Shown: one piece after another, positions 1-29,294 of the stretch
How positions within the stretch are numbered: the stretch's first letter is position 1
How the letters are laid out: each line of letters starts with the position of its first letter
Assembly: GCA_032128875.1 (NCBI GenBank)
Contig: JAVLKG010000016.1
Coordinates: 1-64,000, forward strand
Origin: Candidatus Melainabacteria bacterium 17Bon1m
GTDB taxonomy: Bacteria; Cyanobacteriota; Vampirovibrionia; Obscuribacterales; Obscuribacteraceae
Direction: 5' to 3'
Length of the DNA: 64,000 nt
Translations under genes and position numbers: made by a program
The notes under the pieces: generated by a model
Database searches by the model: none
What the model was told of the DNA's origin: nothing
What the model saw: the letters and a program-made list of their open reading frames with translations, nothing else

Positions 1-2026
<2,026 letters not shown>

Positions 2027-9852: not shown

Positions 9853-9891
9853 AGGTGCTCTACCCACACAGTAATTCATAGCCCTAAAAGC

Positions 9892-9922
9892 ACTCTATCA
9901 ACGAGTTGTTGTCGACTTGTTA
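9892..9922 (-). promoter_or_regulatory. 11-bp direct-repeat (TAAC-N7-CAACAA) activator site plus -10 box TAGAGT
   Basis: Minus strand TAACAAGTCGACAACAA-ctcgttga-TAGAGT upstream of the kinase-LRR gene; same geometry as five other sites. Confidence 0.6.
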
Positions 9923-10150
9923 AATGGCACCAAGACGCCCAACTGGCTTGAAAACTTTGTTGTCTAACTAGTAAATCGCCGACGTTGGCAGGCTCGTTTT
10001 ACGGGCAATTGTTTAACAAGGTACAAAATCTGCTGCGCTAGACTGATATCTGATCTATGAGTTGCCTTTCTTGTCGGAAACCATGTCGCGCAAAGACCAC
10101 GAAATCCATACCGGCCAAAAGAGAATCATAAACAAAGGCATGAAAAGGGC

Positions 10151-11161
10151 ATGAGGAAAGGCCGTTTCAATCTCGCCGAAACCGGTTTTATCCTGGTGGC
10201 AATTCCGCTCGTCTTTCAGCTTGTTTTGTCGTTTCCACTTTCAGATACGCTGTCGAAGATTGAAAGGCAAACTCTGGCTCGCCTGCGTTCAACGAGAATA
10301 ATATCTGCCGCCAGCCAAGTTAGTCTTGAGTTCTACAGCATCGCCGCAATGCTGACGCTTTTTCGATTTACTAGAGATCCCGCAATTGCTGATAGTTATC
10401 GCGCCTCAAGACGTGCTGCTAAAGAGACTGGCGAGTATTTGATTTTGCTTACTAGCGACCGCCCTGAGCAGAAAGAGCGCGCGGAGAAAGTCAACAAGCT
10501 CGGGGACGAGGCGGCGGCTATAGTCAGCGGATTTGAGCACTCGATGGAGATGGGCATGTCCGCTGTTATTGAAGCATCAAGATTTCGACATCAAGTAAAC
10601 CGAATTTTCGTTCCGATGATCAATGAGTTGGATGCACTTGTAAAAGAAGAGCGTCTGCGTTTGACAGGTGAGCAACCGGATTTTGATCGTCTCTTCAGAG
10701 TGATTGCCATCGGATTTGGTGCTAATTTGCTTCTCTCCGGTTTTCTGGCGCTGTTTTTCTTCAGAACAATCATTTCGAGAATCGAGCGGCTTAAGTACAA
10801 CCTCAAGCGTTGCGCGCAGAGGGAAAAGCTGGCGCCGATGCTCGAAGGGCGCGATGAATTCGTTCGACTCGATGAAGCGTTCCATCGAATGGACGACCAG
10901 TTAACTGACATTGAGAATCGCAAACGGGAGTTTGTGGCGACGATCAATCATGATTTGCGAACTCCTTTGACCACCTTACAATACGTTGTCGCTCTGGCAC
11001 TCAAAGGCTCTTATGGAGAGTTCAGCGAAGAGGAGCGAGCGATTCTGGCCAAACAAGAGGAAAAAATTGTCGAACTTGTAGACTACATCAACCAATTTCT
11101 TGCAGCCGAGAAGAAAAAGTCCGAAACCGCGATTAGCACCGACACTGAGGCTAGTCACTAA
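10151..11161 (+). CDS. Membrane sensor with HAMP and HisKA (DHp) but no HATPase domain
   Basis: 2 TM, HAMP, intact H-box INHDLRTPL; the protein ends ~70 aa later with no N/G boxes. Confidence 0.85.
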   Translation: MRKGRFNLAETGFILVAIPLVFQLVLSFPLSDTLSKIERQTLARLRSTRIISAASQVSLEFYSIAAMLTLFRFTRDPAIADSYRASRRAAKETGEYLILLTSDRPEQKERAEKVNKLGDEAAAIVSGFEHSMEMGMSAVIEASRFRHQVNRIFVPMINELDALVKEERLRLTGEQPDFDRLFRVIAIGFGANLLLSGFLALFFFRTIISRIERLKYNLKRCAQREKLAPMLEGRDEFVRLDEAFHRMDDQLTDIENRKREFVATINHDLRTPLTTLQYVVALALKGSYGEFSEEERAILAKQEEKIVELVDYINQFLAAEKKKSETAISTDTEASH

Positions 11162-11163
11162 CT

Positions 11164-12636
11164 ATGCGTTTTTCTCTCGCGGCGAAAGGAATTGTGCTGA
11201 TTGCTCTGCCGATTTTGATCGAGTTGATTGCACTTTCTCTTTTGTGGCATTTTGTCATGGATGCAGACGCTGAGGCAAAAAAACAGTCAAACGCCAGAGA
11301 TATAGCTGCGGAAACGAGCCACATCTTGCTTCAATTTTTCCAACTCGGCTCTCAGATTTTGCTCTACAAGGCAGAAGGACCTGCTGGCGAACGCAGAGTT
11401 TACGTAGAGTTGAAAGAATCAATGAAGCAATCCACATCGAGATTGACTTCACTTGCAATCGATTTACCAGAGCCAGAGAAGATCAGGGTCAAACAAATTG
11501 AGACGCGCATCGATCGAGCAGTTGCTTTAGTAGGCGGTTACATCACGGAAATGACCAGTCCTACTCATATCCTTGGGGCTTTCGATGTTGCAGGCTTTAG
11601 AAAACAGTTGATGGATCAGGTTCTTCCGCTGGAAAGAGACGCCAAGCATTTTACTGACTTGAGTAAAAACAATGAGCTTTATGGACAATGGACGGAGAAG
11701 GCTTCTAACGAGCGGCACCTCTTATTGATCGGTTCTCTTGTTCTGCCAAACATTTTAATTGCCATTGCACTTGCGTCATTTTATTCGAAGAGCGTCCGCA
11801 GTCGAATTCGCAGAATCGATTCCAATGTTAATCGTTTTTTGGAGGGGCGTATGCTCGATCGAAGTATGCCTTCCGAGGATGAAATATCAGATGTGGACGA
11901 GGCTTTTCATCAAATGAGCGCAAAGCTAATCGCCGCCGATCTAGAGATGCAAGACTATTACGATTCGATGCAGCGCAATTTGGCTGAGCCTTTGCGTGAG
12001 CTTCGTTCGGTTTTGATTGCTTCTTCTGAGAGCGCCAGTCCTCTGACGGAAACTGGCAGAGCAAAAGTGCTCAAGAGCGTCGCAACTACCGACCGTTTGA
12101 TTTTGCTTATCAAAGAACTTGGAAAGATTGAGGAGATTTCCACTGCAAACGCGCAAGATGCCTCACCGGTGAAAGTGGAGCTCGCTGCATGTCAGATTGA
12201 GGATATTCTTTCTTCTTCAATTGCTTCTGTCGCAGAAATTGCCGCGAAGAAAGAGATCTCGCTCTCCTCTGATTGTGCGAAAAGCTTGATGGTGCAAGCC
12301 GACTCTGCAAAGCTTGTGCAAGTCATCGTCAATTTACTTTCCAACGCAATCAAGTTTTCACCGAAGGGAAGCGCGATCGAAGTGATTGTGGTCAAGACTG
12401 ACAAGAACATCGAAATACACGTCAAAGATCAGGGACCAGGTATTGCATTGAATGAGCAAACTCGATTGTTCAAACGCTTTGAACAAATCGAATCAATCAA
12501 ATCGAGCGACATTAAGGGAAGCGGACTCGGCCTCGCTATCTGTCACGACATCGTCAGTGCACATGGTGGCGAAATAAGTGTCACTAGCGAACCCGGAAAA
12601 GGCAGCGACTTCTGGTTGCGCCTGCCTTTCTCGTAG
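11164..12636 (+). CDS. Membrane histidine-kinase-like protein with intact HATPase but no phospho-acceptor His
   Basis: 2 TM, HAMP; H-box position reads MQRNLAEPL; intact NLLSNAIKF, DQGPG, LFKRF, GSGLGL. Confidence 0.88.
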   Translation: MRFSLAAKGIVLIALPILIELIALSLLWHFVMDADAEAKKQSNARDIAAETSHILLQFFQLGSQILLYKAEGPAGERRVYVELKESMKQSTSRLTSLAIDLPEPEKIRVKQIETRIDRAVALVGGYITEMTSPTHILGAFDVAGFRKQLMDQVLPLERDAKHFTDLSKNNELYGQWTEKASNERHLLLIGSLVLPNILIAIALASFYSKSVRSRIRRIDSNVNRFLEGRMLDRSMPSEDEISDVDEAFHQMSAKLIAADLEMQDYYDSMQRNLAEPLRELRSVLIASSESASPLTETGRAKVLKSVATTDRLILLIKELGKIEEISTANAQDASPVKVELAACQIEDILSSSIASVAEIAAKKEISLSSDCAKSLMVQADSAKLVQVIVNLLSNAIKFSPKGSAIEVIVVKTDKNIEIHVKDQGPGIALNEQTRLFKRFEQIESIKSSDIKGSGLGLAICHDIVSAHGGEISVTSEPGKGSDFWLRLPFS

Positions 12637-12658
12637 GGGCGACGCCATCATCGCCTAC
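12633..12658 (+). repeat. REP-like palindrome (GTAGGGGCG... family)
   Basis: GTAGGGGCGACGCCATCATCGCCTAC, overlapping the stop codon; related copies occur elsewhere. Confidence 0.65.
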
Positions 12659-12809
12659 TATTCCCTGCCGGGAATGCTTTATGGAAGCTTGCCAGCTACG
12701 AGCGCGGGCGGAAATTAAAAGGATGCCCTCTTTGCCCGTTCGGGCGTAATTTGGCCCTGTTTGAATAATTGCCGCATCCAATGCGATAATTAATGAAGAG
12801 GTAAGAAAA

Positions 12810-13112
12810 ATGAGTACAGCGCTGAAGAAACCAATGCCGGAAGGCCGGCCGGAACGTGAGAAAACGGAGACCGAAAAAATTGTGGAGCTTGAGAGCGCGA
12901 CCGAGACAATGGCTGCATATATCGGCTATCTTAATACTCAGATCGTGAATGAAGAGAATCAAGAGACGCCAAATCTGGAGAAGCTGAAAGCGCTAGAAAC
13001 GCAGATAAATCAGGTTCTAAAGGAGCGGCGAGAAATGAGACCAGACAATTACGAGCTGATTGCTAAAGCTCGCTACATTTATGGTCCCATCATGAAGGCG
13101 CTCTACGCTTGA
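12810..13112 (+). CDS. Small helical protein, putative antitoxin of the downstream zeta-like kinase
   Basis: 100 aa, RBS GAGG, 3 bp upstream of the zeta-like gene. Function inferred from position only. Confidence 0.65.
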   Translation: MSTALKKPMPEGRPEREKTETEKIVELESATETMAAYIGYLNTQIVNEENQETPNLEKLKALETQINQVLKERREMRPDNYELIAKARYIYGPIMKALYA

Positions 13113-13115
13113 AGC

Positions 13116-14138
13116 ATGGACAGACACTTTAAGCTCGACGCCAATAAGCACGAGCAGATTTATCGAAAAATAGAATCTCGCCTGTTCCAAGAGACCCGAT
13201 CTTCACTGTATCCGCGCGCGGTGATTATGGGTGGTCAGCCAGGTTCAGGCAAAAGTAAATTACTTGAAGCGAGCAGAGAAGAGTTTCCCGACGGCAATGT
13301 TGTGGTGATCAATGGCGATGAGTTGCGCGAATACCACCCGCAGTCGAACGAGATATTTAAGCTTGATGACAAACGCTATGCGGAGCGAACAGATGCCGAC
13401 AGCCGTGTTTGGACAAAGCGCGTGTTTGATAAGGCAATTGAGACCAGGCGAAATATCATCTTCGAAAGCACTATGCGAGAAGCTGAACCAATATCCGAAA
13501 CAATGAAACGCTTAAGGGATGAGGGATACGAGTTAACCGCCAAGGTTGTAGCGACTCATGAGCGCATTAGTAAGACCAGTATTTACATGCGCTACGAGGA
13601 GCAGAAGCACGATAAAGGCTACGGTCGTTTCACGTCACAAGAAAGCCATGATGCCGGCTACGTAGGTATGCCGAAGACGGTTGACCATATCGACAAGAAC
13701 AAATTGGTTGACCGACTGGAGGTCTATAATCGCTCTGGGGATGTACTTTTTTCTAAAACCTTAAAAGATGGACAGTGGGATCGCGATGAATACGCCGCAA
13801 AGCTTGTCGAGACCGAGAGACATAGGGAGCCAACAGATAAGGAAATTGCTGATTTGCGGACGGATTGGCACCGAATTCTTGAGCATATGGAAGAGCGCAA
13901 TGCACCGCTGAAAGAGCTGGAGCAAGCTCGCTCTGTGCGTCTGGGAATTGAACGAGATTTGGCTAAACGGCGCGATGCGGAGAAGCCGAGAGAACTGCTT
14001 AAGCCGAAGTTAAAAGCAGAAGACGTGTTCAAGCGCAAGAATGCAGACAAGAAAGAAGAGAAAGCAGAGAAAGCAGAAAAAACGGAAAAAACAGAGAAAA
14101 CCGAGCAACGTGATCGGAATGAAGAGCGAGAGCGCTGA
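13116..14138 (+). CDS. Zeta toxin family P-loop kinase
   Basis: Walker A GGQPGSGKS, INGDELREYHP, IIFESTMR, RYEEQ..GYGR, typical of zeta/PezT-like kinases; charged low-complexity tail. Confidence 0.85.
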   Translation: MDRHFKLDANKHEQIYRKIESRLFQETRSSLYPRAVIMGGQPGSGKSKLLEASREEFPDGNVVVINGDELREYHPQSNEIFKLDDKRYAERTDADSRVWTKRVFDKAIETRRNIIFESTMREAEPISETMKRLRDEGYELTAKVVATHERISKTSIYMRYEEQKHDKGYGRFTSQESHDAGYVGMPKTVDHIDKNKLVDRLEVYNRSGDVLFSKTLKDGQWDRDEYAAKLVETERHREPTDKEIADLRTDWHRILEHMEERNAPLKELEQARSVRLGIERDLAKRRDAEKPRELLKPKLKAEDVFKRKNADKKEEKAEKAEKTEKTEKTEQRDRNEERER

Positions 14139-14160
14139 ACGCGATTAGCAAAAGTTTCTC

Positions 14161-14196
14161 GCGCTCGTTGGCAATGGGCACATTGCCAACGAGCGC
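14161..14196. terminator. Perfect 16-bp inverted repeat after the zeta-like gene
   Basis: GCGCTCGTTGGCAATG-ggca-CATTGCCAACGAGCGC; no clear U-tract. Confidence 0.55.
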
Positions 14197-14208
14197 TCAC
14201 TGCATGAA

Positions 14209-14240
14209 CCCGAAGCCGGCGAGCCGCCGGCGCTCCCAGG
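14209..14240 (+). repeat. REP-like element (second family)
   Basis: CCCGAAGCCGGCGAGCCGCCGGCGCTCCCAGG; exact reverse complement at 32087-32118. Confidence 0.8.
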
Positions 14241-14347
14241 CGCTACCAGGTGCTCCCAGGTGCTCCCAGGTGCTCCCAGGTGCTCCCAGGTGCTCCCAGG
14301 TGCTCCCAGGTGCTCCCAGGTGCTCCCAAGTGCTCCCAAGTGCTACC
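14231..14347. repeat. 10-bp tandem repeat (TGCTCCCAGG), ~11.5 copies
   Basis: Directly visible perfect and near-perfect decamer array. Confidence 0.97.
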
Positions 14348-14524
14348 GCGTGCTAGATGCGTTTCCACGCAAAAAGTGCAGAGCTGCCGAACACTTTCGT
14401 GCCCGACAGTCCTACACACCCTGTTCCAAACTTGTTTTAGGTAAATGGGGGATTGAGCTCGCCGTGCATTGGTTGGCGTGAGGTGCGGAGAGAACAGCGA
14501 GCTCGATTGCTGGAGTACATTCAC

Positions 14525-14557
14525 AATGTAATCCGCTCGTTGGACATTCGTTGGACA
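14525..14557 (-). promoter_or_regulatory. TGTCCAAC x2 (11-bp period) plus -10-like TACATT
   Basis: Same motif and 8-nt spacing to a -10 hexamer as at 18002-18046. Confidence 0.5.
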
Positions 14558-14560
14558 ATG

Positions 14561-15457
14561 CTAATCGTCGGTTGCTCTGAAAACAAACTTACAGTCAGGT
14601 TTCGCTTTTCGCAATTGATCCAACTTTTTGGCGGAAACATGCGTATGCGAGAGAGTAACCTTTTCCAGGTGTTTAAGCTGCAGAAGCTTATCTATATATT
14701 TGTCAGTGATATTGGTTTTCGCCAGCCTGAGCTTTTTCAGGTTTTTCAATTTCTGTATTTTTAGAATTGAATCATCGGTGATATAAGTTGCCGCGAGGTT
14801 CAATCTCTCTAGATTTGGGCAACATTCGACAATGGTATTTACAGCGAAGTCATGAACTCTAGTACCTGCTAAATCCAGCATAATCAGATGCTTGAGTTCT
14901 TTGAGTTTGTTGAGCGTCGTTCCTCTCACTAATGTTGATGAAAGGTCGAGCTGCTGCAAGTTTTTCAAATCTGCTACGTACTGAAAAAGAGAATCGTTGA
15001 CGTCAGAATAGCTGAGATCTAAGTGGGTAAGCCCGCTCATTTTTGAAACAGTTTTGAAATTGCTTGTCGAGATTGGGACATCATGCAGTCGCAAGTGTTG
15101 CAGGTCTTGCGGCTTGAGTTTTGACAAAGCATCGAAATAGCGCATGCCTTCTGGTGTTGGTACGAGATAAAGCGCGTCACCGTCTTTGAGAGAAACGTTT
15201 CCCTTTGATGTTCCGAGCATTCGCAGAGGCGTTTCGTTATTAAGCGGATGCGTCATCGCTGTGCCGATTGGTACGGGCGTTGGCGGAAACACGACTGTTC
15301 TGTCCGCACGCGCAGGTGCTGCGAACGAAAGAACGCAGAAGACTGCTGTCAACGTGGATGGTCTTTCGATTGCTTTTGCCAAAACCTTTAGGAGGCTTTT
15401 CGTGAAAGCTATTGTGTTGGCTTTTTTAGCGCTCATCATGTTTTTTCTAGCGCTCAT
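14561..15457 (-). CDS. Exported leucine-rich repeat protein
   Basis: Signal-like VFCVLSFAAPARA; repeated LxxLxxLDLSxTxV/ITD units; overlaps the HK stop codon by 4 bp. Confidence 0.85.
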   Translation of the reverse strand: MSARKNMMSAKKANTIAFTKSLLKVLAKAIERPSTLTAVFCVLSFAAPARADRTVVFPPTPVPIGTAMTHPLNNETPLRMLGTSKGNVSLKDGDALYLVPTPEGMRYFDALSKLKPQDLQHLRLHDVPISTSNFKTVSKMSGLTHLDLSYSDVNDSLFQYVADLKNLQQLDLSSTLVRGTTLNKLKELKHLIMLDLAGTRVHDFAVNTIVECCPNLERLNLAATYITDDSILKIQKLKNLKKLRLAKTNITDKYIDKLLQLKHLEKVTLSHTHVSAKKLDQLRKAKPDCKFVFRATDD

Positions 15458-17274
15458 CGTGCCTTTTCCGCTTCGCGCAGGTCTTCTGTTTCCATCGGCA
15501 CTGTAAACCAGAATACCGTGCCACCGCCGTCGTTGTCTCGCACACCTATTTGCCCTTCGTGCGCTTCAACGACTTGTTTGGCGATGGGCAAGCCGAGCCC
15601 AGTGCCCTTGTGCTTATGTGCTTCCGATTCGACCTGCTTGAAGCGCTCGAACACATGCGATTTGTAGTCATCGGGTATGCCCGGTCCTTGATCGGTAATC
15701 TCCACCAGCACGTAATTGTTCTTTTGCCGGGTGATGATTTTGATGGTTCCGCCATTCGGGGAAAATTTGACTGCGTTCGAGAGGATGTTGACCATTGCTT
15801 GTGTCAGCCGGTCTGCGTCCACATTTACAGCGAAATCTGTGCCTTCCACATTGGTTGCTAAATGTTTTTCTTCAATAAGTGATTCGATTGAAACAATTGA
15901 GCTGTAAGCAATTTCTTGAATCGAATGGCTTTGCAGGTTGAGTGTGAATTGCCCTGATTCGTACTTGTCATAGTCGAGAAGGTCGTTGATAAGCCGCAAC
16001 AGGCGATCTGCAGAACCTTCAGCACCGCGCACTCTTTTCACCGCGTTGTCGCTGAGCTTGCCCATGACGCCGAGAGCGAGCGATTCCAGCACCGCGCGAA
16101 TAGAGGCGATGGGGGAGCGCAAGTCATGCGCGACCGTGTCCATGAGTTTTTGCTTGATTCTTTCGAATTCTCTTTCGCGCGTAACATCTCGCACAACGCA
16201 GAAAAGCGCCCGCTCGCTCGTCGACCAGAAGCTTGAAATGACGACGTCTATTATTCGGCCATCTTTGCGAACCACGCGCGCATCAAATGCACCTTGTGAC
16301 TTCGCTTTGATGTGTTCTTCCGCTTGCCTGGTTGTTTTCGCCGCTGATTCTTTTTCCAAGATTTGCACGAGCCGTAAGCCTGTTACTTCCTCAGGCACAT
16401 AACCCCATACTCTTTCGCATGAGGCAGAAACGCGTAACAGCACTAGGTGTTCATCTAAAGAGCAAAGTACATCCGCCGCGTTATCCAGAAGAGCAAGTTG
16501 TTTGCTGTTTGCTTCTGCCAGCGCTTCTGCCATGCCGTGAAATGTCGTATCCAACTGGGCAACTTCATCGTCGCCCTTTAACGGCACGTTTAGCGGCTTT
16601 CCAGATCCCAACAGTAATGCGTTGTGAGTTACTACTGAAATTCTGCCTGCTATATAGGTAGAGAAAACGTATCCCAATCCTGCTGCAATACAGATGTTGA
16701 CGATGATGCCGGCGATCATCGTTGTGACTACCCACTCCCGAGACTTGTCTGCGGTGGCGTTTTTCTGAAGATCTATCGCGTAGTCATTTAGTAGTCGGTA
16801 GTTTTCCACCAGTGTATTCATATAAGTGAACGCTTGCTTGTGGAAAATTCGCGGGTCTAAGTTTCCCCCGTAGTGTGTGCTAGCACCGCTTCTAATCTCG
16901 CTGAGAAAGCGTCTTGCCTTCTTGCTGTCTTCAATAGCGTTAGAGACGAGATATTGTTTTTTCTCGTCATTTCTCAGAAGTTCTTTCAAATCACCTTCTG
17001 ACTTTTGGATAGTCGCAAGAGATTTATCCAGACGTTCTCCGGCTTCCTCGCTGCGTTTTGAGTGCCATGTTCTAGCTTGCATGGCGGCGTTGAATGACTC
17101 CGCCTGCAGATTTGCGACGACTGCTGCAAGTTTTGCCCCCAGTATCTGCGCTTTCAAATCGCGTTCTGCATCCTGTAAAGCGTTTATCAAAAACCAAAAG
17201 AAAACCAAGCTGAACAGCACCGGCACCGTCACGATGATGATTCCCAACCGGCGCAGCGACAGTCCTTTGATCAT
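15454..17274 (-). CDS. Sensor histidine kinase (2 TM, HAMP, PAS, HisKA, HATPase)
   Basis: AHDLRSPI, NILSNAVKF, DQGPG, GTGLGL. Confidence 0.93.
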   Translation of the reverse strand: MIKGLSLRRLGIIIVTVPVLFSLVFFWFLINALQDAERDLKAQILGAKLAAVVANLQAESFNAAMQARTWHSKRSEEAGERLDKSLATIQKSEGDLKELLRNDEKKQYLVSNAIEDSKKARRFLSEIRSGASTHYGGNLDPRIFHKQAFTYMNTLVENYRLLNDYAIDLQKNATADKSREWVVTTMIAGIIVNICIAAGLGYVFSTYIAGRISVVTHNALLLGSGKPLNVPLKGDDEVAQLDTTFHGMAEALAEANSKQLALLDNAADVLCSLDEHLVLLRVSASCERVWGYVPEEVTGLRLVQILEKESAAKTTRQAEEHIKAKSQGAFDARVVRKDGRIIDVVISSFWSTSERALFCVVRDVTREREFERIKQKLMDTVAHDLRSPIASIRAVLESLALGVMGKLSDNAVKRVRGAEGSADRLLRLINDLLDYDKYESGQFTLNLQSHSIQEIAYSSIVSIESLIEEKHLATNVEGTDFAVNVDADRLTQAMVNILSNAVKFSPNGGTIKIITRQKNNYVLVEITDQGPGIPDDYKSHVFERFKQVESEAHKHKGTGLGLPIAKQVVEAHEGQIGVRDNDGGGTVFWFTVPMETEDLREAEKAR

Positions 17275-17276
17275 GT

Positions 17277-17948
17277 TTATTCGTCTACTTTATAGCCACG
17301 ACCGACGATGTTGGTAATCGGCGAAGGGCTGCCTGGAACGTCGATTTTTTGACGAAGCCTTGTTATGCATTTGCGGACAGCATCAACAGAAGAATCCGAA
17401 TCACAAGACCACAGGCGATCGAGGAGTTCGTCAACGCTAAATACTCTTCCTTTGTTTCGAATCAAGTGTTCTAGTAATGCAAACTCTTTCGGATGTAGCG
17501 ATATTTCTTTACCGCGCCGGAAGCATTTAAACTCGCTGACTTGCAAAGTCAAATCGCCTGCTGTCAAGGTTTCACCCTTGTATTCTGACGGACGCCGCAG
17601 CAACGCTTTTACTCTTGATTTCAGCTCAATAAGATTAAATGGCTTTGTTAAATAGTCATCCGCACCGCCGTCAAGCCCGGTCACTTTGCTGTCGATGCCG
17701 CTGTTTGCCGTGAGCATGATGACCGGCGTCGATTTCCCTGCATCCCGCATCTTCTTTAGGACATCGATTCCTTCCATCGAGGGTAGATTCCAGTCAAGGA
17801 TAACTAGGTCGTATTCAAGAGTCTCCAGCCTGTCCCAGCCGTCCGCGCCGTCCGCCACGCTCTCGACAGTGAAGTGCTCCTGCTGCAGCATGTCGACCAC
17901 GCTTTGAGCAATTAGTACATCATCTTCGACCAGTAATATCTTCGCCAT
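17277..17948 (-). CDS. OmpR/PhoB-family response regulator
   Basis: ILLVEDD, ILDWNLP, GADDYLTKPF, winged helix (LHPKEFALL..RLRQKI..GRGY). Start placed at MAKIL. Confidence 0.95.
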   Translation of the reverse strand: MAKILLVEDDVLIAQSVVDMLQQEHFTVESVADGADGWDRLETLEYDLVILDWNLPSMEGIDVLKKMRDAGKSTPVIMLTANSGIDSKVTGLDGGADDYLTKPFNLIELKSRVKALLRRPSEYKGETLTAGDLTLQVSEFKCFRRGKEISLHPKEFALLEHLIRNKGRVFSVDELLDRLWSCDSDSSVDAVRKCITRLRQKIDVPGSPSPITNIVGRGYKVDE

Positions 17949-18001
17949 GGGGGCACTATAGCAGCCTTCAAGCAATTCGCAAATGGCAAATTCGTCGCAT
18001 T

Positions 18002-18046
18002 TTGTCCAACTGTTGTCCCATCGTTGTCCAACCGGATGCCTATTGT
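18002..18046 (+). promoter_or_regulatory. Triple TTGTCC direct repeat (11-bp period) plus -10 TATTGT; putative OmpR-family operator
   Basis: TTGTCC at 18002, 18013 and 18024, between the divergent OmpR-type gene and the LysM gene. Confidence 0.65.
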
Positions 18047-18080
18047 GTCGGTAAGACCCACCTTGCTGAGGACCGGAACG

Positions 18081-19235: not shown

Positions 19236-19287
19236 GTCGTCGTATTAACAATCGAAGTCGCCTCAAAGTTTCAACAACCAGCAAGGA

Positions 19288-19318
19288 AGAAGCCCGCCGT
19301 CCCTCCGGCGGGTTTTCT
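19288..19318 (+). terminator. Putative rho-independent terminator
   Basis: AGAAGCCCGCCG-tccctc-CGGCGGGTTTTCT hairpin with T-rich tail. Confidence 0.6.
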
Positions 19319-19332
19319 GCTTGTTGCGTTTT

Positions 19333-19363
19333 TAACACCTCGCTAACAACATACGCCTATTGA
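19333..19363 (+). promoter_or_regulatory. TAAC-N7-TAACAA-N8-(-10) promoter motif
   Basis: TAACACCTCGCTAACAA-catacgcc-TATTGA. Confidence 0.5.
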
Positions 19364-19407
19364 AAGAGGTGTGTTCTATCACGTGTCTTTCGAACCGGAG
19401 ATTTTAA

Positions 19408-20481
19408 ATGCCAGCAGACTCACTACAGGGCAAAGCCGAAGCATCGCTGTCTTTTACAGAAGAACAGAAAAAGGATGCGTCTGAAAAACTTCTACTGGAC
19501 AGCCCTCAAATTAGCCTCAAGCCCTCCGGCACTCGTGACTCTGGCACTCCAGCTCAGTCGGACACCCTGAAGGGCGTCTTACCAGAAATGACAATCGAAA
19601 ACACCGAGGCAGCGCAAAACGATGCATCGGACCTTAGAGATCAGAAGAAGGCTGAGATAGAGCAAAAATACGGTGTCCTCTTTGAGACGAAGGATACCTG
19701 CCCTCCGCAGGATCGCGACAAACTTAGAGAGCCGACCTTGGCAGAACTAGAAATCGTGGAATGGGCTCTGTCAAAGAATCAAGCTGCTGTCAAACCAAAT
19801 GTGTTCTCAATAAATAGAATGACCATCATGTTTTCGACTGACACCGCAGGAGCATCTGCTTTTCATTCATCTGAGAGCGGCGTGTTTGGAAATTCTCGTG
19901 TCGTAATCAACAACACAGAGAAAGTTTTGACCAAAGAAGATACAAAGAATGGGCAGAGTTTGGGCAGCGTATTGCTCCATGAATTCGGGCACCGCGCCAG
20001 CTTTATGAAAGAGCCTGATATAGAAGGACTCGGTTGGCGAAAGATTGGAGAGAAAGATGTAGCGATCGAAACCAAAGATGGAAGCCTCTACAAATACGTT
20101 GAAGAAAAGAGTGCAGATGGTAAAGATAAAAAGATCTATTGGAGCAAAATCGATAAAGATGGCAACTCGTTGGAAGACCAACCGCAAGGGCGCTTGACGG
20201 ACGAGCAGATGCTTCACTTGGAGAAGGTTTCACAACCCATGCGTCCGGCAAACCATCCAAGTGAAACCTTTGCAAATGCAATGAGAATGTACTGTCAGAA
20301 CAAAGAAACCCGCGAGGAGCTGAAGAGTAAGTGTCCTGATATGTACCGCTACATCGACGAATACGATCGCAAAGAACTTCGTCGCCTTGGAAGCGATTTC
20401 TTTGGCATTAGCAATTATGTACGCGACGAGAATGGCGACATAGTTCGCAATCCGCAAGCATGGAACCCGGCACTTGCCTAG
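19408..20481 (+). CDS. Putative zinc metallopeptidase (HExxH; lethal-factor-like zincin pattern)
   Basis: LLHEFGH plus downstream PSETFANAMRMY...LKSKCPDMYRYID. Confidence 0.7.
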   Translation: MPADSLQGKAEASLSFTEEQKKDASEKLLLDSPQISLKPSGTRDSGTPAQSDTLKGVLPEMTIENTEAAQNDASDLRDQKKAEIEQKYGVLFETKDTCPPQDRDKLREPTLAELEIVEWALSKNQAAVKPNVFSINRMTIMFSTDTAGASAFHSSESGVFGNSRVVINNTEKVLTKEDTKNGQSLGSVLLHEFGHRASFMKEPDIEGLGWRKIGEKDVAIETKDGSLYKYVEEKSADGKDKKIYWSKIDKDGNSLEDQPQGRLTDEQMLHLEKVSQPMRPANHPSETFANAMRMYCQNKETREELKSKCPDMYRYIDEYDRKELRRLGSDFFGISNYVRDENGDIVRNPQAWNPALA

Positions 20482-20524
20482 TTTGTAGGATTGCAGGCTC
20501 TGAGATCTGTAACCCGACCACGTT

Positions 20525-20555
20525 TAACGGCTCGATAACAAGTTGGCTTTATTGT
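20525..20555 (+). promoter_or_regulatory. TAAC-N7-TAACAA-N8-(-10) promoter motif
   Basis: TAACGGCTCGATAACAA-gttggctt-TATTGT. Confidence 0.6.
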
Positions 20556-20588
20556 TCAACTATCCCGAGTGCGTTTGGAGAATATGAA

Positions 20589-21902
20589 ATGTCTGGACAA
20601 GAGATAAGGTCACCGCAGAACGCAGCCACTGAAGGCTTGCAAGATGCACGTAATATCCAATCTGAGCTCAGCATCAACTCTAATTCTGCCTACCAGATGT
20701 TTTGTCGAGAGTTGAATGACGTTGATACCAATGTCAAAGACGCGAATCTCAAAGTTGCTTACCAAGAAAATCTTTTGCGCAACCTTGGAGAAAGCAATGT
20801 AAACGCATTGATGCTCGAGTACTTGAACGATCCGCGCGGTGGAGCTGACCTCAAAAGACAAGGGCAGGTTACGCGCTTGTCCATAGCTGAGAAGAAAGCT
20901 CAAGCTGCTACGCCCGAAGGCCTTTCGCCGGCGGACAAGCTATTCTTACCGCACATGAGCCTTACGTTCGACAATCTAAGAAATGGGGACTTAAGGGACG
21001 GCGCCAATAAGAAAAACTCTGATGGAATCACTGACAATGACTTAAGAGCGCTTAGTGGAAAACTAAGTTCTGATAGATTTGCGAATTCTGCAACCAAAGT
21101 GAATCGAAGGGAGAAATTTGCTGATTCATTTCTGGACCCTACCCGTTCTGAGATTTTCGACAGGATTGAAACATCCGATGATTTGCCGTTCACTCGCAGA
21201 GACGGAAAGATTTCAAAAAGCAACCTAAAGGAATTTCTTGAAGACGCTGCCAAATATAACAAGAGCGATAAGGAGTTTAAGTATCCAGCAGACCTTATGC
21301 AGAGCGTGCAATACATGCACGAAAACTGGGACTCTCCTCAAGTCCGCATGATGCGTGACAAAGACGGGGAGGGTTACATGACGCGCGATTCTATCGCAAA
21401 GGGCTGCGGTTATCCAGGTGGTTATTCGGAATACGTAGAGAGCTTCAAGCAGGCAAAGATCAACCAATCTAAGGTCGCTCAGCCCGAGAGAGTACCGGAC
21501 ACTTCTCAGCGCGAGCGGATCGTGAAAGGAGCTGTTGAGCGAAATGAAAAACCGCCGGTACAGTCTATTGAAGACTTTAAAAAATCCAAGCTGTCCACTT
21601 TGGCTAAGCAAGAAACCATGCAAGGATACTGGCACGTCGGCGCTAAGCTTTTGAAGGAAAGTCCGGTGGAAAAAGAAAGCCCACAAGAAACTTCCAGGCA
21701 AAACATCATCCTGATGCGCGCGTTGCAGCATTTGCACAAGCAACAAGGTGGCAAACTAGGCGGTCATGAGTTTTTGGCTTCCCAAAAGGATTTCGACAAC
21801 TTGAAGGCAGAAATTGACAAATATACGCAGAGCAGAAGTGAAAGAACTCGTGCCTCGGCAGAAGTCTTGAAAAAACGACTTGAAAAACTGAAAGCAAATT
21901 AG
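20589..21902 (+). CDS. Hypothetical protein with EF-hand-like loops
   Basis: Long ORF, RBS GGAG before MSGQEI; DGITDNDL, DGKISKSNL and DGEGYMTRDSI loops. Confidence 0.7.
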   Translation: MSGQEIRSPQNAATEGLQDARNIQSELSINSNSAYQMFCRELNDVDTNVKDANLKVAYQENLLRNLGESNVNALMLEYLNDPRGGADLKRQGQVTRLSIAEKKAQAATPEGLSPADKLFLPHMSLTFDNLRNGDLRDGANKKNSDGITDNDLRALSGKLSSDRFANSATKVNRREKFADSFLDPTRSEIFDRIETSDDLPFTRRDGKISKSNLKEFLEDAAKYNKSDKEFKYPADLMQSVQYMHENWDSPQVRMMRDKDGEGYMTRDSIAKGCGYPGGYSEYVESFKQAKINQSKVAQPERVPDTSQRERIVKGAVERNEKPPVQSIEDFKKSKLSTLAKQETMQGYWHVGAKLLKESPVEKESPQETSRQNIILMRALQHLHKQQGGKLGGHEFLASQKDFDNLKAEIDKYTQSRSERTRASAEVLKKRLEKLKAN

Positions 21903-22002
21903 GCAGCGAAGCAACGTTTTTGCGTCGCACTAAGTGTGCAGTCCACTTTTGACTCCTGAGATGGTGCAAAAGGGGCGAGCCGCTGCCTGAATCCGCTGCA
22001 TT

Positions 22003-22033
22003 AAACGTATTCATAACAAATCGCTTCTAAAGT
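22003..22033 (+). promoter_or_regulatory. AAAC-N7-TAACAA-N8-(-10) promoter motif
   Basis: AAACGTATTCATAACAA-atcgcttc-TAAAGT. Confidence 0.55.
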
Positions 22034-22074
22034 ATCAGTTGCTGATAGGAATGCGGTTTGCGGAGCAGTTACTA

Positions 22075-23853
22075 ATGAGCAATGATAACGAGCAAAAAGA
22101 GTTTCAAAACAAGAGAGATTCGAGAGAAAGCGAAAAGGAAAATCAAGAGAATAGCTCGCTAAAGTCTCTAACTGAAGTGCAAGATGCTCAAAGAAATGGC
22201 GCCAAAACAGAAGACCAGTCAATTAAGAACTCACAGAAAACTGTCAAAAATGAAATCGACAAAGACAACCCCTTGCAAATTGTCGATAGCAGCGAAAAGA
22301 AGCAGATCAAGGGACTAGAGCTGGACGCGGACGGCAACGCAGTTAAGTACACCGATAAGCTCGGCGAGACTTATAAGATGGACAGCAATGGTCAGTGGAT
22401 GCGCTATGGATTGTTGTCTCCGCAAGGAGAGCCAGTGGAAAACGTCAAGCTTGATGAGAAGGGTAATCTGAATATCACTTATAGAATTCAGAAAGACGAA
22501 AGCGACTCGCAATCCAAACCAGAACTGATTACAAAACAAATAAGCCCGGATGGTTCTGAAAAAACTTTCTATCCCAAGTCGACCACCATAACAACACGCG
22601 AAGATGATGACAAAGTAAAAGTCGTAACGGTATACAGACCGGAGGACGGTAGAACTCCCTGCGGTGCGCTCCAAACCGTCAAATTCAGCGTATTGGATTC
22701 AAATAAGCCACCAATGTGTAGCGAATTTACTGCGCCTGATGGTTCTGTCTACAAAGCTAACGGACAACTCGACAAAGATGGCCACTACTTGTTCGACAAA
22801 TTTAGTAATGGAATTAGAGACGAGAATTTTAATGGCTATGTAAGTGCTGACTCCGATGGTTGTGCCGTTGTTTTCAACAGCAATCCTGATGCCAAGCCGA
22901 GATGCATCCGTTACTTGCCTGATGGCACCGTTGCGTTTGGATCAAGTTCTAAGGAAAGGACCGTAATGCTGGTAGATGGCACAACGATTGAAAACAAGAT
23001 CGAAACGAACGGCACCGCGACCATGACCACCCATCGCGCTAATGATGAGAGTACTACTAGAGTCGAGTTCGACAGGCTCGGTCTAGCGAACAAAATTACA
23101 TACACAACTAAAGATGGGCAGACGAGCACTTACAGTCGGTTTGATGGGGATTTCGATGACAAAGGGAATCCCGTGTCTACCAGAGAGCTTGGTTGGTATG
23201 ACGCCAATGGCAATCTCGTCGATATGAAAGAGCAGCCATTTTTGGACTTCGAAGCGGTGGATGGCTCCAAGGTTCGCCTCGATGAGAAGGACTTGCCACA
23301 GAAGTTCACATCTAAGGGCAACAACCCCATTGAAGAGCGCCCATTGATTCAAGAAGTTCCAGAGAATTACAAAGACTTGCTTGAAAATCGCTTCAACAGC
23401 TGTCGGAACGATTCCGCTTTGACGACGCCAATAGCGGGCAGTTGGACATTCAAGAATTTGACGCAGGACGATGGAGATTGGGATGATAAGCGCTACGGGC
23501 GTCAGTACGAACAATGGGGCAATGCAGCGTGGGGAATGTACGCCAATGAGTTGGGTTACGAATTCGAGGACGCGAATCTCGGCGTTGGAGTTTATAAGAT
23601 TTTTTCAGGAAAAAGCAACCTGAGTTGGATTTCTACCTCGGGTCAGAATCCGCGAGACTACAAGGTGTCAAAGGAAGGTTTTGAGTTGCGAGAAAAGCAG
23701 CGTAATCAGTCAGAAGATCTCCCGTTAAAGTCGAACGACGAAGGAGTCGACTTGCCGTCATTGCCTTCAGCGCCAAAGGTCAACAACAATATTGCAATTC
23801 GCAATATGCGTCGTGAATCAAATCAAAGTTATTCAATGTACAAAGCCTCTTAA
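22075..23853 (+). CDS. Polymorphic-toxin-like protein with beta-repeat stalk and C-terminal Ntox44-like domain
   Basis: YD/RHS-like hairpins (DADGNAVKYTD, PDGS/PDGT); C-terminal FK..WDDK..GNAAWG..NPRD..GFE pattern. Confidence 0.65.
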   Translation: MSNDNEQKEFQNKRDSRESEKENQENSSLKSLTEVQDAQRNGAKTEDQSIKNSQKTVKNEIDKDNPLQIVDSSEKKQIKGLELDADGNAVKYTDKLGETYKMDSNGQWMRYGLLSPQGEPVENVKLDEKGNLNITYRIQKDESDSQSKPELITKQISPDGSEKTFYPKSTTITTREDDDKVKVVTVYRPEDGRTPCGALQTVKFSVLDSNKPPMCSEFTAPDGSVYKANGQLDKDGHYLFDKFSNGIRDENFNGYVSADSDGCAVVFNSNPDAKPRCIRYLPDGTVAFGSSSKERTVMLVDGTTIENKIETNGTATMTTHRANDESTTRVEFDRLGLANKITYTTKDGQTSTYSRFDGDFDDKGNPVSTRELGWYDANGNLVDMKEQPFLDFEAVDGSKVRLDEKDLPQKFTSKGNNPIEERPLIQEVPENYKDLLENRFNSCRNDSALTTPIAGSWTFKNLTQDDGDWDDKRYGRQYEQWGNAAWGMYANELGYEFEDANLGVGVYKIFSGKSNLSWISTSGQNPRDYKVSKEGFELREKQRNQSEDLPLKSNDEGVDLPSLPSAPKVNNNIAIRNMRRESNQSYSMYKAS

Positions 23854-23982
23854 TTGAAGAAAGTGATTTTGCAACTCCATAACATATTGAGAGTATGTTA
23901 GCTGCATAAGACGTCACGAGTTGCCAGAGTCGATTCGCGTTATTCCGCAAGTACGTCTATCAAATTTACAGGATGAGCAAAG

Positions 23983-24006
23983 TGCCGGCGAAAGCCGGCA
24001 TTTTTG
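23983..24006 (+). terminator. Rho-independent terminator
   Basis: TGCCGGC-GAAA-GCCGGCA followed by TTTTT. Confidence 0.75.
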
Positions 24007-24197
24007 TTCTGATTTCCAATCTGATCTCGTACTTACCGAGCAATATGTCAGCCGCAGTCTCGCAGGTGATTTGGTCCAGCTTACCGAACAGGCAGTAAGC
24101 AAGCTTGTTGCCCTGGATGACGCTATAGGCTCCATTACTCCAGCCTTACAGTTGGGATGATCGAGCAGACTGTTTTCGAGGGAGCCCATTGAAGGAT

Positions 24198-24304
24198 CTG
24201 TAGAACCTGTGAAAGTGATCCTGTAGAACCTAATAAAAGCGACTCTGTAGAACATGTAGAACCGAACCTGTAGAACCGCCCGTTATAAGCAAACCTGTAG
24301 AGGT
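24198..24304. repeat. Cluster of six CTGTAGAACC-like motifs
   Basis: Copies at 24198, 24221, 24245, 24254, 24268 and 24295. Confidence 0.8.
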
Positions 24305-24326
24305 GTCCGCCGGTTTACTTCCAGAC

Positions 24327-24357
24327 AAAACAGAAGAGAGCGCTTTTGGCGCTCTCC
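24327..24357 (-). terminator. Rho-independent terminator of the minus-strand LysM/EF-hand gene
   Basis: Minus strand GAGAGCGC-caaaa-GCGCTCTC-TTCTGTTTT. Confidence 0.65.
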
Positions 24358-24389
24358 TCATCACTCATATCCTATGGAAAACTTGTTCT

Positions 24390-25850
24390 TTATCCCTTCC
24401 AGGTCTGGCTATCTTGCTGTGTCATAACGCCGTCATGCCTTTCGGTTCTGTCTCCAGTCTTCGGATTGACTGTGACCGTTGAACGTCTTTCCAATTCGGC
24501 CTTAATTTGAACGAGCGCTTTTTTCTCTCTTTCAATCTGTTGTTTTTCAGCTTCATTTGCTGGTTGTTTCGTTTCCAATTCCTTCTCGTACTTGGTTACG
24601 TCAGGAATGCTAATGGTGCCGTCATAACCGGAGACCTTCAGGAAGAATGCTTCATCAGTTTTCAGCAATTCCTTGGCGTCTTGCTTGTCTTTTTCTTCAG
24701 CGGCCTTCTTCTGCTCCATCTCTACTTTCTGTTGCTCAAGTTCTTTTTCCTTTCGGGCAGCTTGAGTTTCATTGTCGGTCCAGGAGGTGAGATCTCCCTT
24801 CGTGATGCCGTCGTTCTCGTCCCATGTTTCGTCGTCGTTGAATTCTTCGATATCTCCACGCTTCGATGCCAATTCCTTCAAGTATGCGTCGTGGTTAGCG
24901 TTCTTGCCGATTGTCTTGTTGACTCGGTATTCATTGATTTCCGTTTCGGTGAGATAGTGGTCTCCGTCCTTGTCGATGTCATCGAATACGGTGTCTTTTG
25001 TTTCGCCCTTGCTAAGCATCCATTTTTGCTCTTGGAGCAGGAAATCTTTGCGCTGGTCTGGGCCAACTTGTTGCTCTTGCTCGCATGGCGTCTTGTTTTC
25101 GGTCTTATTCTCGGTCTTATTCTCGGTTTTATTTTCTGTATTTTCAGTTTTGTTCTCGGTTTTGTTCTCAGTCTTATTCTCTGTGTTTTCGGTTTTGTTT
25201 TCGGTTTTGTTCTCAGTCTTTTTCTCAGTTTTATCTTCTGTTTTATTTTCCGTTTTATTTTCTGCGTTCTTGGTTTCCGCAGCTTTTCTTGCTTCTGCTA
25301 TTGCTGTTGCGGAGTCCGCCGGCAATTTGAGTGTATCCCGGCCTTCCTTGATTCTGTTTGGGTCTTTTAACTGAGGATTTTCTTTGATGATTTTGTTCAT
25401 CTCGTTGTAGACTTCGAGCGCAGATGATTGTTTGCCGGGGTTCTTCTCGGCGCAGACCTTTTCTGCGATACTCCAGATGGTGTCGCCTTTATTGACTTCG
25501 TAAACTGGCTTTCCATCCTGATCTAGTTTGAAATCAATGTTTTTCGACTGGGTTTTTTCTGCTTCTTTTTCGCTGGTGCTAAAGTTGCTCTGTTTATTGA
25601 ACTCGACGGTTTTTCCTTCAGTGTTACTAAATTCCATGTTGCCGTCAGCGTCTATTTGGACGAATGACAGTCCTTTCAAAGCTCCAATATCATTATTATT
25701 GTCAGCAATTTTTTTGTTGAATTCATCTTTGTTCTTTGGGTCTTTTAGTAAGGTAGAAACCTCTTCATAAGCCGCTGTAATTTCCTTTTGATCTTTCTTT
25801 TCGTTAACGGCTGTTTCGAGTCTATTAACACTTTCTGTTACTGACGGCAT
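24390..25850 (-). CDS. LysM plus EF-hand protein with (K)TEN repeat linker
   Basis: YEVNKGDTIWSIA..NPQLKDPNRIKEG..LKLP (LysM); DIDKDGDHYLTETEI (EF-hand); RBS GGAG before MPSVT. Confidence 0.8.
   Translation of the reverse strand: MPSVTESVNRLETAVNEKKDQKEITAAYEEVSTLLKDPKNKDEFNKKIADNNNDIGALKGLSFVQIDADGNMEFSNTEGKTVEFNKQSNFSTSEKEAEKTQSKNIDFKLDQDGKPVYEVNKGDTIWSIAEKVCAEKNPGKQSSALEVYNEMNKIIKENPQLKDPNRIKEGRDTLKLPADSATAIAEARKAAETKNAENKTENKTEDKTEKKTENKTENKTENTENKTENKTENKTENTENKTENKTENKTENKTPCEQEQQVGPDQRKDFLLQEQKWMLSKGETKDTVFDDIDKDGDHYLTETEINEYRVNKTIGKNANHDAYLKELASKRGDIEEFNDDETWDENDGITKGDLTSWTDNETQAARKEKELEQQKVEMEQKKAAEEKDKQDAKELLKTDEAFFLKVSGYDGTISIPDVTKYEKELETKQPANEAEKQQIEREKKALVQIKAELERRSTVTVNPKTGDRTERHDGVMTQQDSQTWKG
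25090..25275 (-). repeat. Coding 12/9-bp tandem repeat encoding KTEN/TEN
   Basis: About 15 degenerate units, visible in both DNA and protein. Confidence 0.9.
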
Positions 25851-25923
25851 AGAAACGTTCTCCAGGCAAAGGATGTGAGTGAAAAGTGCTGTTTGTTTAG
25901 TGACTGCACTCTCGATGGTGCAA

Positions 25924-25954
25924 ACCTTACTCTCGGAATGTTTTGGAACTGTTA
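25924..25954 (-). promoter_or_regulatory. TAAC-N7-AAACA-(-10) promoter motif (proximal)
   Basis: Minus strand TAACAGTTCCAAAACAT-tccgagag-TAAGGT. Confidence 0.55.
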
Positions 25955-26182
25955 AATGGCGATCGGTCTCTTCACTCGCCCGCAAACATCCACAAGAGTT
26001 TCAATCGACTTCCAGAAAAGACGAAAGCTCACTTTTCAGTGAGCCTCATCCTTCTTCCCAAAGACTGTTTTTAATGGATAACTTCGAACAGAGTGAAAAG
26101 TAGCAAGGGGTGGAGAGGGTTTTTCCGAGATTGTTCTCGATTTGTTTCTGGGTTTGGTCGGCTCTGTTCCGAAGTTGTTCTC

Positions 26183-26213
26183 AGAATACGTAAGAGTTGT
26201 TGCCGAGTTGTTA
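26183..26213 (-). promoter_or_regulatory. TAAC-N7-CAACAA-N8-(-10) promoter motif (distal)
   Basis: Minus strand TAACAACTCGGCAACAA-ctcttacg-TATTCT. Confidence 0.6.
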
Positions 26214-26350
26214 ATCGTTTCGCGCTGAATTTCGCCCGTCCGGTTTGGGAATTCATCTTTTGATCCGCGAGGTTTACCTACCAGCGGGCATAACTCCACA
26301 TAAGTAATAAGGCCATAGACAGATAAAGATTAAGCGTCCGGGGATTTGTA

Positions 26351-28787: not shown

Positions 28788-28861
28788 TGGGCCATCCTGG
28801 ACTCGAACCAGGGACCTCACCCTTATCAGGGGTGCGCTCTAGCCACCTGAGCTAATAGCCC
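28788..28861 (-). tRNA. tRNA-Ile(GAT)
   Basis: GGGCTATTAGCTCAGGTGGCTAGAGCGCACCCCTGATAAGGGTGAGGTCCCTGGTTCGAGTCCAGGATGGCCCA. Confidence 0.98.
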
Positions 28862-29215: not shown

Positions 29216-29294
29216 ACTCGGGCGGACCCACGAACTGTCTCGACTCGTTCGTTTGCCACCATATGCGGTGCGGATTTATTGAGTTTTGAAAAAT

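Follow-up and report, generated by a model that had tools for sequence, protein, structure and literature searches.

A shared tandem 11-nucleotide element at putative activator-dependent promoters in a 16-kb segment of a Candidatus Melainabacteria genome

In this study, a 64,000-nucleotide (nt) stretch of the genome of Candidatus Melainabacteria bacterium 17Bon1m (GenBank assembly GCA_032128875.1, contig JAVLKG010000016.1, positions 1 to 64,000 of the forward strand; hereafter, the window) was analyzed with regard to a repeated sequence, motif A, found upstream of several genes. Six firm sites and one probable site of motif A (S1 to S7, Table 1) were located. The explanation that we favor, with somewhat better than even confidence, is that these sites are activator-dependent promoters sharing one operator of the OmpR/PhoB (pho-box) type. 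According to this explanation, a winged-helix response regulator from the OmpR/PhoB family, acting as a dimer or as two molecules in tandem, would bind the two units of the operator on one face of the helix and would recruit RNA polymerase with the primary sigma factor, like PhoB at pho boxes. In a 16-kb segment, five protein genes, and probably two small RNAs as well, would then be co-induced by one signal. Motif A is very probably regulatory; that an activator binds it, and that this activator belongs to the OmpR/PhoB family, we infer from the arrangement of the sequence.

A sequence-only reading of this DNA had proposed six sites with the pattern (T/A)AAC-N7-(T/C/A)AACA(A/T)-N8-hexamer. All six were found at the positions and on the strands proposed; five of them match the pattern with the hexamer TAnnnT exactly, and S2 has TATTGA at this place. 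Five exact matches in the window compare with 0.01 expected, and none of 100 shuffles reached five. Subsequently, a position weight matrix (PWM) was built from five sites and used to find the sixth. Every held-out site ranked 6th or 7th of 127,932 positions (scores 11.9-26.4) and was exceeded only by the sites used for training and by a new one, S7. When all six sites were used for training, they scored 33-40, and the best score in 1.44 Mb of unrelated DNA was 13.2. This background consisted of 80 loci, with 10-kb flanks, that carry homologues of the response regulator encoded in the window (the best homologue being 49% identical). Furthermore, all seven sites are intergenic, with intergenic DNA making up 10.7% of the window (P ~1.6e-7). 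They occupy six of the 28 intergenic regions of the window, all among nine consecutive ones (9853-26350), and all copies of motif A lie within 16.3 kb. These results confirm that the six sites exist and greatly exceed what chance would produce.

Read toward the downstream gene, the consensus of motif A is C-R-T-T, TAAC(A)nnTC(G/C)n, (T/C)AACA(A/T)n(T)(C/T)Gn, 3 nt, and TAnnGT. In the operator, an 11-nt unit (approximately TAACAnnTCGn) occurs twice, head to tail, and the whole element is about 35 bp long. The C-R-T-T in the 5' flank, the TCG in each half and the G at position 5 of the hexamer are features beyond the pattern described earlier. AACA of the second unit was invariant in 7/7 sites, the TA...T ends of the hexamer were likewise marked as invariant when the sites were compared with extracytoplasmic function (ECF) sigma promoters (see below), and TCG was the least conserved part. 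The gap between the second unit and the hexamer (TAnnnT, or TATTGA in S2) was exactly 3 nt in 7/7 sites.

Each half proved to be a genuine copy of the same 11-nt unit. When a model was trained on the first halves, all seven second halves fell in the top 0.006-0.9% of the 11-mers of the window, and when it was trained on the second halves, all seven first halves fell in the top 0.002-2.5%. A pooled half-site model found seven tandem matches at a period of 11 and none or one at every other period between 7 and 15 (random mean, 0.1). The pooled model is circular for the sites on which it was trained, and the independent tests are the leave-one-out and the cross-half comparisons. A further tandem pair of motif-A units lacking a -10 hexamer was observed on the reverse strand at 26126-26147 (AAACAAATCGA GAACAATCTCG), about 30-50 nt inside the predicted S6 transcript, where the same regulator might also bind.

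The seventh site, S7, scored 19.5 with the six-site PWM, compared with a maximum of 18.4 in 100 random windows. S7 is a probable rather than a firm member of the set: its unit 1 is poor, and without S5 in the training the score falls to 10.3. The sequence-only reading had also placed a more degenerate site at 10014-10044, in front of a split kinase gene. This site scored only 0.7 and belongs to the two-mismatch class of the core pattern, a class with 18 members in the window where 10.2 were expected, the excess being about the number of true sites. It is therefore indistinguishable from chance by sequence.

Pairwise identity between the sites reached 0.57 within the motif; it was 0.25 for the flanks and 0.28 for the variable internal spacer. 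Such values, high in the motif and at the random level around and inside it, indicate constraint on positions rather than the remnant of a duplication. The sites might otherwise be taken as duplicated promoter fragments or remnants of a small mobile repeat that share no regulator, and this would suit their confinement to 16.3 kb and the presence, among the downstream genes, of two distant LysM paralogues, though one of these carries a different repeat (motif B, see below). The random-level identity outside the conserved positions largely refutes this origin. In addition, the downstream proteins are unrelated save for the LysM pair, and no longer direct repeats join the sites, so that duplication is extremely improbable as an explanation.

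We then considered the architecture of the predicted promoters. When the transcription start was assumed to lie 7 nt past the hexamer, the two units were placed at about -37 to -16. No usable -35 box was found in 7/7 sites, as only 0-2 of six positions matched TTGACA at a spacing of 16-18 bp, and a TG-type extended -10 was seen in S1 only among the seven sites. Promoters of this kind should therefore be weak without a bound protein. Recognizable -35/-10 pairs are present at other genes of the window, namely TTGCGA-16-TATAGT before the regulator gene and TTGAAT-18-GATAAT before an operon with a zeta-toxin gene. For the five coding targets, the ATG lies 33-73 nt past the hexamer, after correction of the gene starts to 9852, 19408, 20589, 22075 and 25850. 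A clear GGAG was observed 9-10 nt 5' of the ATG in four of the five targets, and the ribosome site downstream of S1 was less clear.

The comparison of motif A with OmpR/PhoB-type sites, already drawn in the sequence-only reading, held in both of its parts. Such a site, at which a phosphorylated winged-helix response regulator activates transcription, has at least two head-to-tail units with a centre-to-centre distance of 10-11 bp, and the repeats stand in place of the -35 box with a -10 at a fixed distance; motif A shows both arrangements, the latter with predicted starts. The period of 11 bp has precedents in this family. Repeats of 6 bp separated by 5 bp are bound by KdpE (PMC3264566), and repeats of 7 bp separated by 4 bp by PhoP of M. 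tuberculosis (PMC4832192). The genes also appear to be separately promoted, as had been proposed. This is supported, for example, by a strong terminator at 19289-19316, which parts the preceding LysM gene from S2 and lies right before it. No terminator was seen among the three genes that follow, and read-through among them is therefore possible. Because of the tandem-site geometry and the separately promoted genes, one shared regulator is the natural reading.

In four of the seven sites, unit 1 together with the T before it spells TTAACA, which matches the -35 consensus TTGACA in five of six bases, albeit at a spacing of 20 bp. Accordingly, we considered whether an alternative sigma factor alone might recognize motif A, either with this TTAACA as the -35 and a 20-bp spacer, or in the manner of an ECF sigma factor, with AAC of unit 1 as the -35 and TCG of unit 2 as the -10. 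An AAC core is typical of the -35 of ECF promoters. In either form, however, the best-conserved block, AACA of unit 2, would fall in the spacer, where sigma factors contact few bases, and the units are copies of each other, unlike a -35/-10 pair. In the ECF form, the invariant TA...T hexamer would have no role and the supposed -10 (TCG) would be the least conserved part of the motif; moreover, an ECF promoter has a spacer of about 16-17 nt, free of conserved bases, between the AAC core and a short CGT-type -10, and the spacer of motif A is not free of them. No sigma-factor gene was present in the window. Recognition by a sigma factor alone is thus quite unlikely.

The position of motif A over the core promoter, at about -37 to -16, would also suit a repressor operator lying over the -35 and spacer of constitutive promoters, in which case the genes would be co-repressed. 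Indeed, OmpR-family proteins can repress from core-promoter positions, and the tandem pair at 26126-26147, inside the S6 transcript and without a -10, is at a typical roadblock position. Against co-repression stand the missing -35 at 16-18 bp in 7/7 sites and the restriction of the TG-type extended -10 to S1. Furthermore, the fixed 3-nt gap to the hexamer is demanded by recruitment of the polymerase but not by repression. We regard repression as unlikely, and activation from the tandem units as the better account of these promoters.

Motif A was compared with the named boxes of related regulators. Like the pho box of E. coli PhoB, it has head-to-tail repeats 11 bp apart that replace the -35 and keep a constant distance to the -10. 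It differs from the pho box in its unit, TAACAnnTCGn, and in its target genes, which are unrelated to phosphate, and presumably it sits a few bp closer to the -10. The CtrA box of Alphaproteobacteria, TTAA-N7-TTAAC, likewise has half-sites 11 bp apart, is bound by an OmpR-family protein and often overlaps the -35; in motif A, the second half has no TT before AAC, and the host is not alphaproteobacterial. The form TTAA-N7-TTAA, which had been cited as a precedent from CtrA and also served as the PmrA-type form, matched none of the seven sites, and its single match in the window is at 13999-14013. We take the consensus of PmrA to be a different sequence from motif A.

Other OmpR-class sites of cyanobacteria, the sister lineage of the host of motif A, are the RcaC L-box, the SphR pho box and the RpaB HLR1. 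The L-box, whose consensus we take to be TTGTTA-N5-TTGTTA, would be nearly the reverse complement of motif A. With this pattern on the opposite strand, S1, S2 and S6 matched with one mismatch and S3 with two (4/7 sites). Nine matches with up to two mismatches were found in the window against 4.4 expected, and the resemblance is loose. In one paper, the L-box is called an inverted motif; its orientation to the gene, its targets and its organism also differ from those of motif A. The cyanobacterial CcaR G-box is a direct repeat (PMC5737509). At the level of the regulon, a parallel is found in Legionella, a gammaproteobacterium, in which, according to PMC6989116, LciRS-LciE forms a local island beside its two-component system. 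The LciR element is an inverted repeat, whereas motif A is a direct repeat, and the targets of PmrA and LciRS are proven Icm/Dot substrates, whereas here one target is a membrane kinase of a Melainabacterium and no secretion-system gene is in the window. By analogy, motif A would resemble the pho box in its working and PmrA or LciR sites at the regulon level, and it appears to be a member of none of the named boxes tested.

We also examined the two-component operon that lies amid the motif-A sites (Table 1). Its response regulator, encoded at 17277-17948, is the only OmpR-family regulator in the window. The best NCBIfam match of the regulator was cyanobacterial RppA (199.8 bits, below the cutoff of 250), and its named relatives come from Melainabacteria or Obscuribacterales. 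The histidine kinase (15454-17274) has two transmembrane (TM) segments, and the leucine-rich repeat (LRR) protein (14561-15457) has a signal-peptide-like N-terminus. The operon has its own sigma-70-like promoter at 17982-17955.

Another repeat with a period of 11 bp, motif B, was found on both sides of this operon. It reads approximately TTGTCCAACnn, and its three-unit copy reads TTGTCC(A/C)A(C/T)nG. Motif B differs from motif A both in sequence and in the register of the hexamer, which follows after 6 nt instead of 3 nt, and it is likely to be the operator of another response-regulator circuit. In the stretch without open reading frames (ORFs) between the zeta-toxin gene and the LRR gene, which copy 2 of motif B faces, we also observed a 10-nt tandem repeat at 14232-14344 (11.3 copies with 96% identity; GCTCCCAGGT on the forward strand and GGGAGCACCU in the sense of motif B; fold z = -2.2). 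The GGA-rich RNA of this repeat recalls CsrA-sponge RNAs, a likeness only.

The sequence-only reading had named the regulator at 17277-17948 as a candidate for binding motif A. As the sole regulator of its family in the window and with a gene in the middle of the cluster, it might indeed be the master of the TAACA promoters. Two links between the circuits were also found. The operon's LRR protein is similar to the ectodomain LRRs of the kinase downstream of S1 (28% identity over 198 residues, E = 2e-10), which hints at one signaling circuit and may reflect a shared ligand or a pair of sensor and accessory protein, and the LysM paralogues are split between motif A and motif B. However, motif B flanks the operon of this regulator on both sides (18002-18046 and 14558-14525), and this makes the regulator a weaker candidate for motif A. 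It would be more economical if the local regulator acted on motif B and an unseen paralogue on motif A. OmpR paralogues are plentiful in such genomes, and the homologue search returned 4,304 proteins at E <= 1e-40. Taken together, control of motif A by the adjacent regulator is doubtful.

Several of these observations count against an activator of the OmpR/PhoB family at motif A. The only regulator of this family nearby has motif B, not motif A, on both flanks of its operon. Its DNA-binding domain and recognition helix are generic and therefore give no clue to its specificity. At the 80 loci of regulator homologues, neither motif A nor motif B was found near the gene, and synteny with the window ends at the regulator-kinase pair. 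The PWM is based on six or seven sites from one 16-kb stretch of one genome, and the score of S7 depends on S5, as described above. Finally, TTAACA at 20 bp keeps an unusual sigma-only promoter conceivable.

The sequence-only reading had held that each site faces a gene start. This was true of five sites. S6 lies 333 nt 5' of the LysM ATG with a terminator-like hairpin in between, and it faces, as does S7, a stretch that has no convincing ORF and ends in a hairpin and a T run. The transcripts of S6 and S7 are probably small RNAs (Table 1); alternatively, with read-through at the weaker hairpin, S6 could serve the LysM gene as an additional, distal promoter. No Rfam family was found for either candidate (best E = 0.59-1). 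When pairing of the small RNAs with leaders was compared with shuffles, one of 12 pairs gave a nominal 0.005 and the rest 0.15-0.79, which is no evidence of targeting. In the gap of about 330 nt between the convergent terminators 24004/24333, five to six copies of CTGTAGAAC-type repeats were observed at 24198-24278; no ORF and no Rfam match were found for them.

Table 1 Coordinates of the predicted motif-A promoters, the candidate small RNAs, the downstream protein genes, the two-component operon and the motif-B copies in the window.
Feature	Coordinates	Strand	Description
S1 promoter	9892..9922	-	Units 9912-9922 and 9901-9911; -10-like TAGAGT 9892-9897; predicted start ~9885
S2 promoter	19333..19363	+	Units 19333-19343 and 19344-19354; hexamer TATTGA 19358-19363; predicted start ~19370
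S3 promoter	20525..20555	+	TATTGT 20550-20555; predicted start ~20562
S4 promoter	22003..22033	+	First half AAAC, not TAAC; TAAAGT 22028-22033; predicted start ~22040
S5 promoter	25924..25954	-	TAAGGT 25924-25929; predicted start ~25917
S6 promoter	26183..26213	-	TATTCT 26183-26188; predicted start ~26176
S7 promoter (probable, new)	23869..23899	+	Degenerate first half TTGCAACTCCA; TATGTT 23894-23899; predicted start ~23906
Candidate small RNA from S7	23906..24010	+	~105 nt; intrinsic terminator 23979-24004; folding z = -4.4
Candidate small RNA or long leader from S6	26014..26176	-	~160 nt; terminator-like hairpin 26047-26024; z = -2.5
Target 1 (S1)	7819..9852	-	Ser/Thr kinase residues 46-305; one TM segment ~353-383; LRR ~496-674
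Target 2 (S2)	19408..20481	+	357-residue hydrophilic HExxH (HEFGH) metallopeptidase; no signal peptide
Target 3 (S3)	20589..21902	+	437-residue all-helical protein, restricted to Melainabacteria-type sources
Target 4 (S4)	22075..23853	+	592 residues; disordered N-terminus, beta-hairpin repeats ~80-400, helical C-terminal domain
Target 5 (S5)	24390..25850	-	486-residue LysM protein; TENK repeats; DxDxDG loop seen by eye; ATG 25850
Regulator operon	14561..17948	-	OmpR-family response regulator 17277-17948; PAS histidine kinase 15454-17274; LRR protein 14561-15457
Motif B copy 1	18002..18046	+	TTGTCCAACTG / TTGTCCCATCG / TTGTCCAACCG, 6 nt, TATTGT; 5' of LysM gene ATG 18081
Motif B copy 2	14525..14558	-	TTGTCCAACGA / ATGTCCAACGA, 6 nt, TACATT; directly past the end of the operon, facing an ORF-less stretch

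The proteins encoded downstream of motif A are mutually unrelated, the LysM pair, of which one member is under motif A and the other under motif B, being the sole exception. They had been called effector-like, a label that found no support and is wrong for the kinase-LRR protein (Target 1). With its single TM helix between the kinase domain and the LRRs, the latter is a membrane receptor kinase; its ATG at 9852 was preferred over that at 9879. In PADLOC, it matched generic kinases only and no defence system was recognized. Targets 2-5 are hydrophilic (grand average of hydropathy, -0.85 to -1.38), with neither signal peptide nor membrane segment, and no secretion-system gene was found in the window. 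Target 2 matched Pfam ATLF at E = 1.9e-6 over 36 residues (283-318). The family of Target 3 gave weak EF-hand_6 matches in 10/16 members (best E = 0.0074), and a fold search with the model of Target 3 (predicted local distance difference test, pLDDT, 76.7) gave 0 matches at E <= 0.001. Target 5 is a distant paralogue of the LysM gene at 18081-19235. For the EF-hand label given earlier to Targets 3 and 5, the Pfam matches (E = 0.043 and 0.47-0.71) were below the curated cutoff.

The family of Target 4 comprised seven matches in 5.8 billion sequences, that is, the query's own cluster and six others. When its model (pLDDT 65.9) was used for a fold search, Rhs/teneurin YD-repeat proteins and proteins with single-layer beta-sheets (OspA, the CPAP G-box) were retrieved with E = 3e-6 to 1e-3 and low TM-scores (template modelling scores) of 0.05-0.34. 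These matches would show the type of repeat and not the function. Target 4 had also been described as an Ntox44-like toxin. The window protein did not match Ntox44 (Pfam PF15607) at E <= 1, and a weak match (E = 0.035) was obtained in one of seven aligned sequences of the family, a homologue. By sequence, no solved structure was found for the families of Targets 3 and 4 (E >= 0.24). Orthologues of both are present in a metagenome-assembled genome of Candidatus Obscuribacterales (78% and 77% identity; locus tags K2Y39_20375 and K2Y39_20390). For both tags, the longest contig given is 18,826 bp, which agrees with their lying on a single contig and hence with clustering of Targets 3 and 4 in this relative too.

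The G+C content of the window is about 44-54%, and the window contains many genes for tetratricopeptide repeat (TPR) proteins, Ser/Thr kinases and histidine kinases. No direct repeats of at least 18 nt that might mark att-like ends of an island were found in 1-32000. Inside the cluster, a histidine kinase is encoded by two ORFs at 10151-12636 (+), the first of 336 residues (CHASE3, HisKA) and the second of 490 residues (ATPase domain), which begins 3 nt past the stop of the first; this may be a split or truncated sensor. The second ORF gave a weak PADLOC match in the HATPase region (PDC-M43B, E = 1.3e-6). Also inside the cluster, at 12810-14138 (+), a 100-residue ORF is followed by the zeta-toxin-family kinase (Pfam Zeta_toxin, E = 3e-49) under the TTGAAT-18-GATAAT promoter, resembling a toxin-antitoxin pair of the epsilon/zeta type. 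Elsewhere in the window, a partial 23S rRNA gene (1-2026, reverse strand) with tRNA-Ala(TGC) upstream (1-2522) has no adjacent 16S or tRNA-Ile gene, and the rRNA operon is therefore unlinked; tRNA-Ile(GAT) is located at 28788-28861, 26 kb from the 23S rRNA gene. Between this tRNA-Ile and tRNA-Ala(CGC), an 18-nt repeat, TTTGGCTGGAAnGACATA, occurs in five to six copies at 29111-29218. A 405-residue protein with a TPR and two retropepsin-like aspartyl-protease domains (gag-asp_proteas, E = 1e-27) is encoded at 34997-36214 (+).

In a targeted literature search, no description of a promoter or regulon of Melainabacteria or Obscuribacterales was found, and searches directed at secretion and predation yielded none either. 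In PMC4451040, the spread of predation in the class of Vampirovibrio is stated as unknown. The mechanism proposed for motif A would itself be of a familiar, textbook design. Its value would lie in the operator of about 35 bp, which provides a handle for locating the remaining members of the regulon in complete genomes, for pairing an orphan response regulator with its site, and for asking whether Obscuribacterales, like Vampirovibrio, carry inducible interaction proteins. The hydrophilic, lineage-restricted proteins without signal peptides, together with the receptor kinase, would fit a cell-surface or interaction module. An attack or developmental phase, proposed in the sequence-only reading, is speculation. 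It is also conceivable, but rather unlikely, that motif A marks an arsenal for cell interaction that is specific to Obscuribacterales and induced as a whole. Such an arsenal would comprise the lethal-factor-like zinc peptidase, the YD/Rhs-like repeat protein with its toxin-like C-terminus and the Ca-loop and LysM proteins, all leaving the cell by a non-Sec route, together with the two small RNAs and the LRR receptor kinase, which would sense a partner cell at the surface. If this were true, scanning Obscuribacterales genomes for motif A would uncover the effectors of a second lineage, predatory or host-associated, among the non-photosynthetic relatives of cyanobacteria, in parallel to the sites of winged helix-turn-helix regulators (PmrA, CpxR) that mark effector genes in Legionella.

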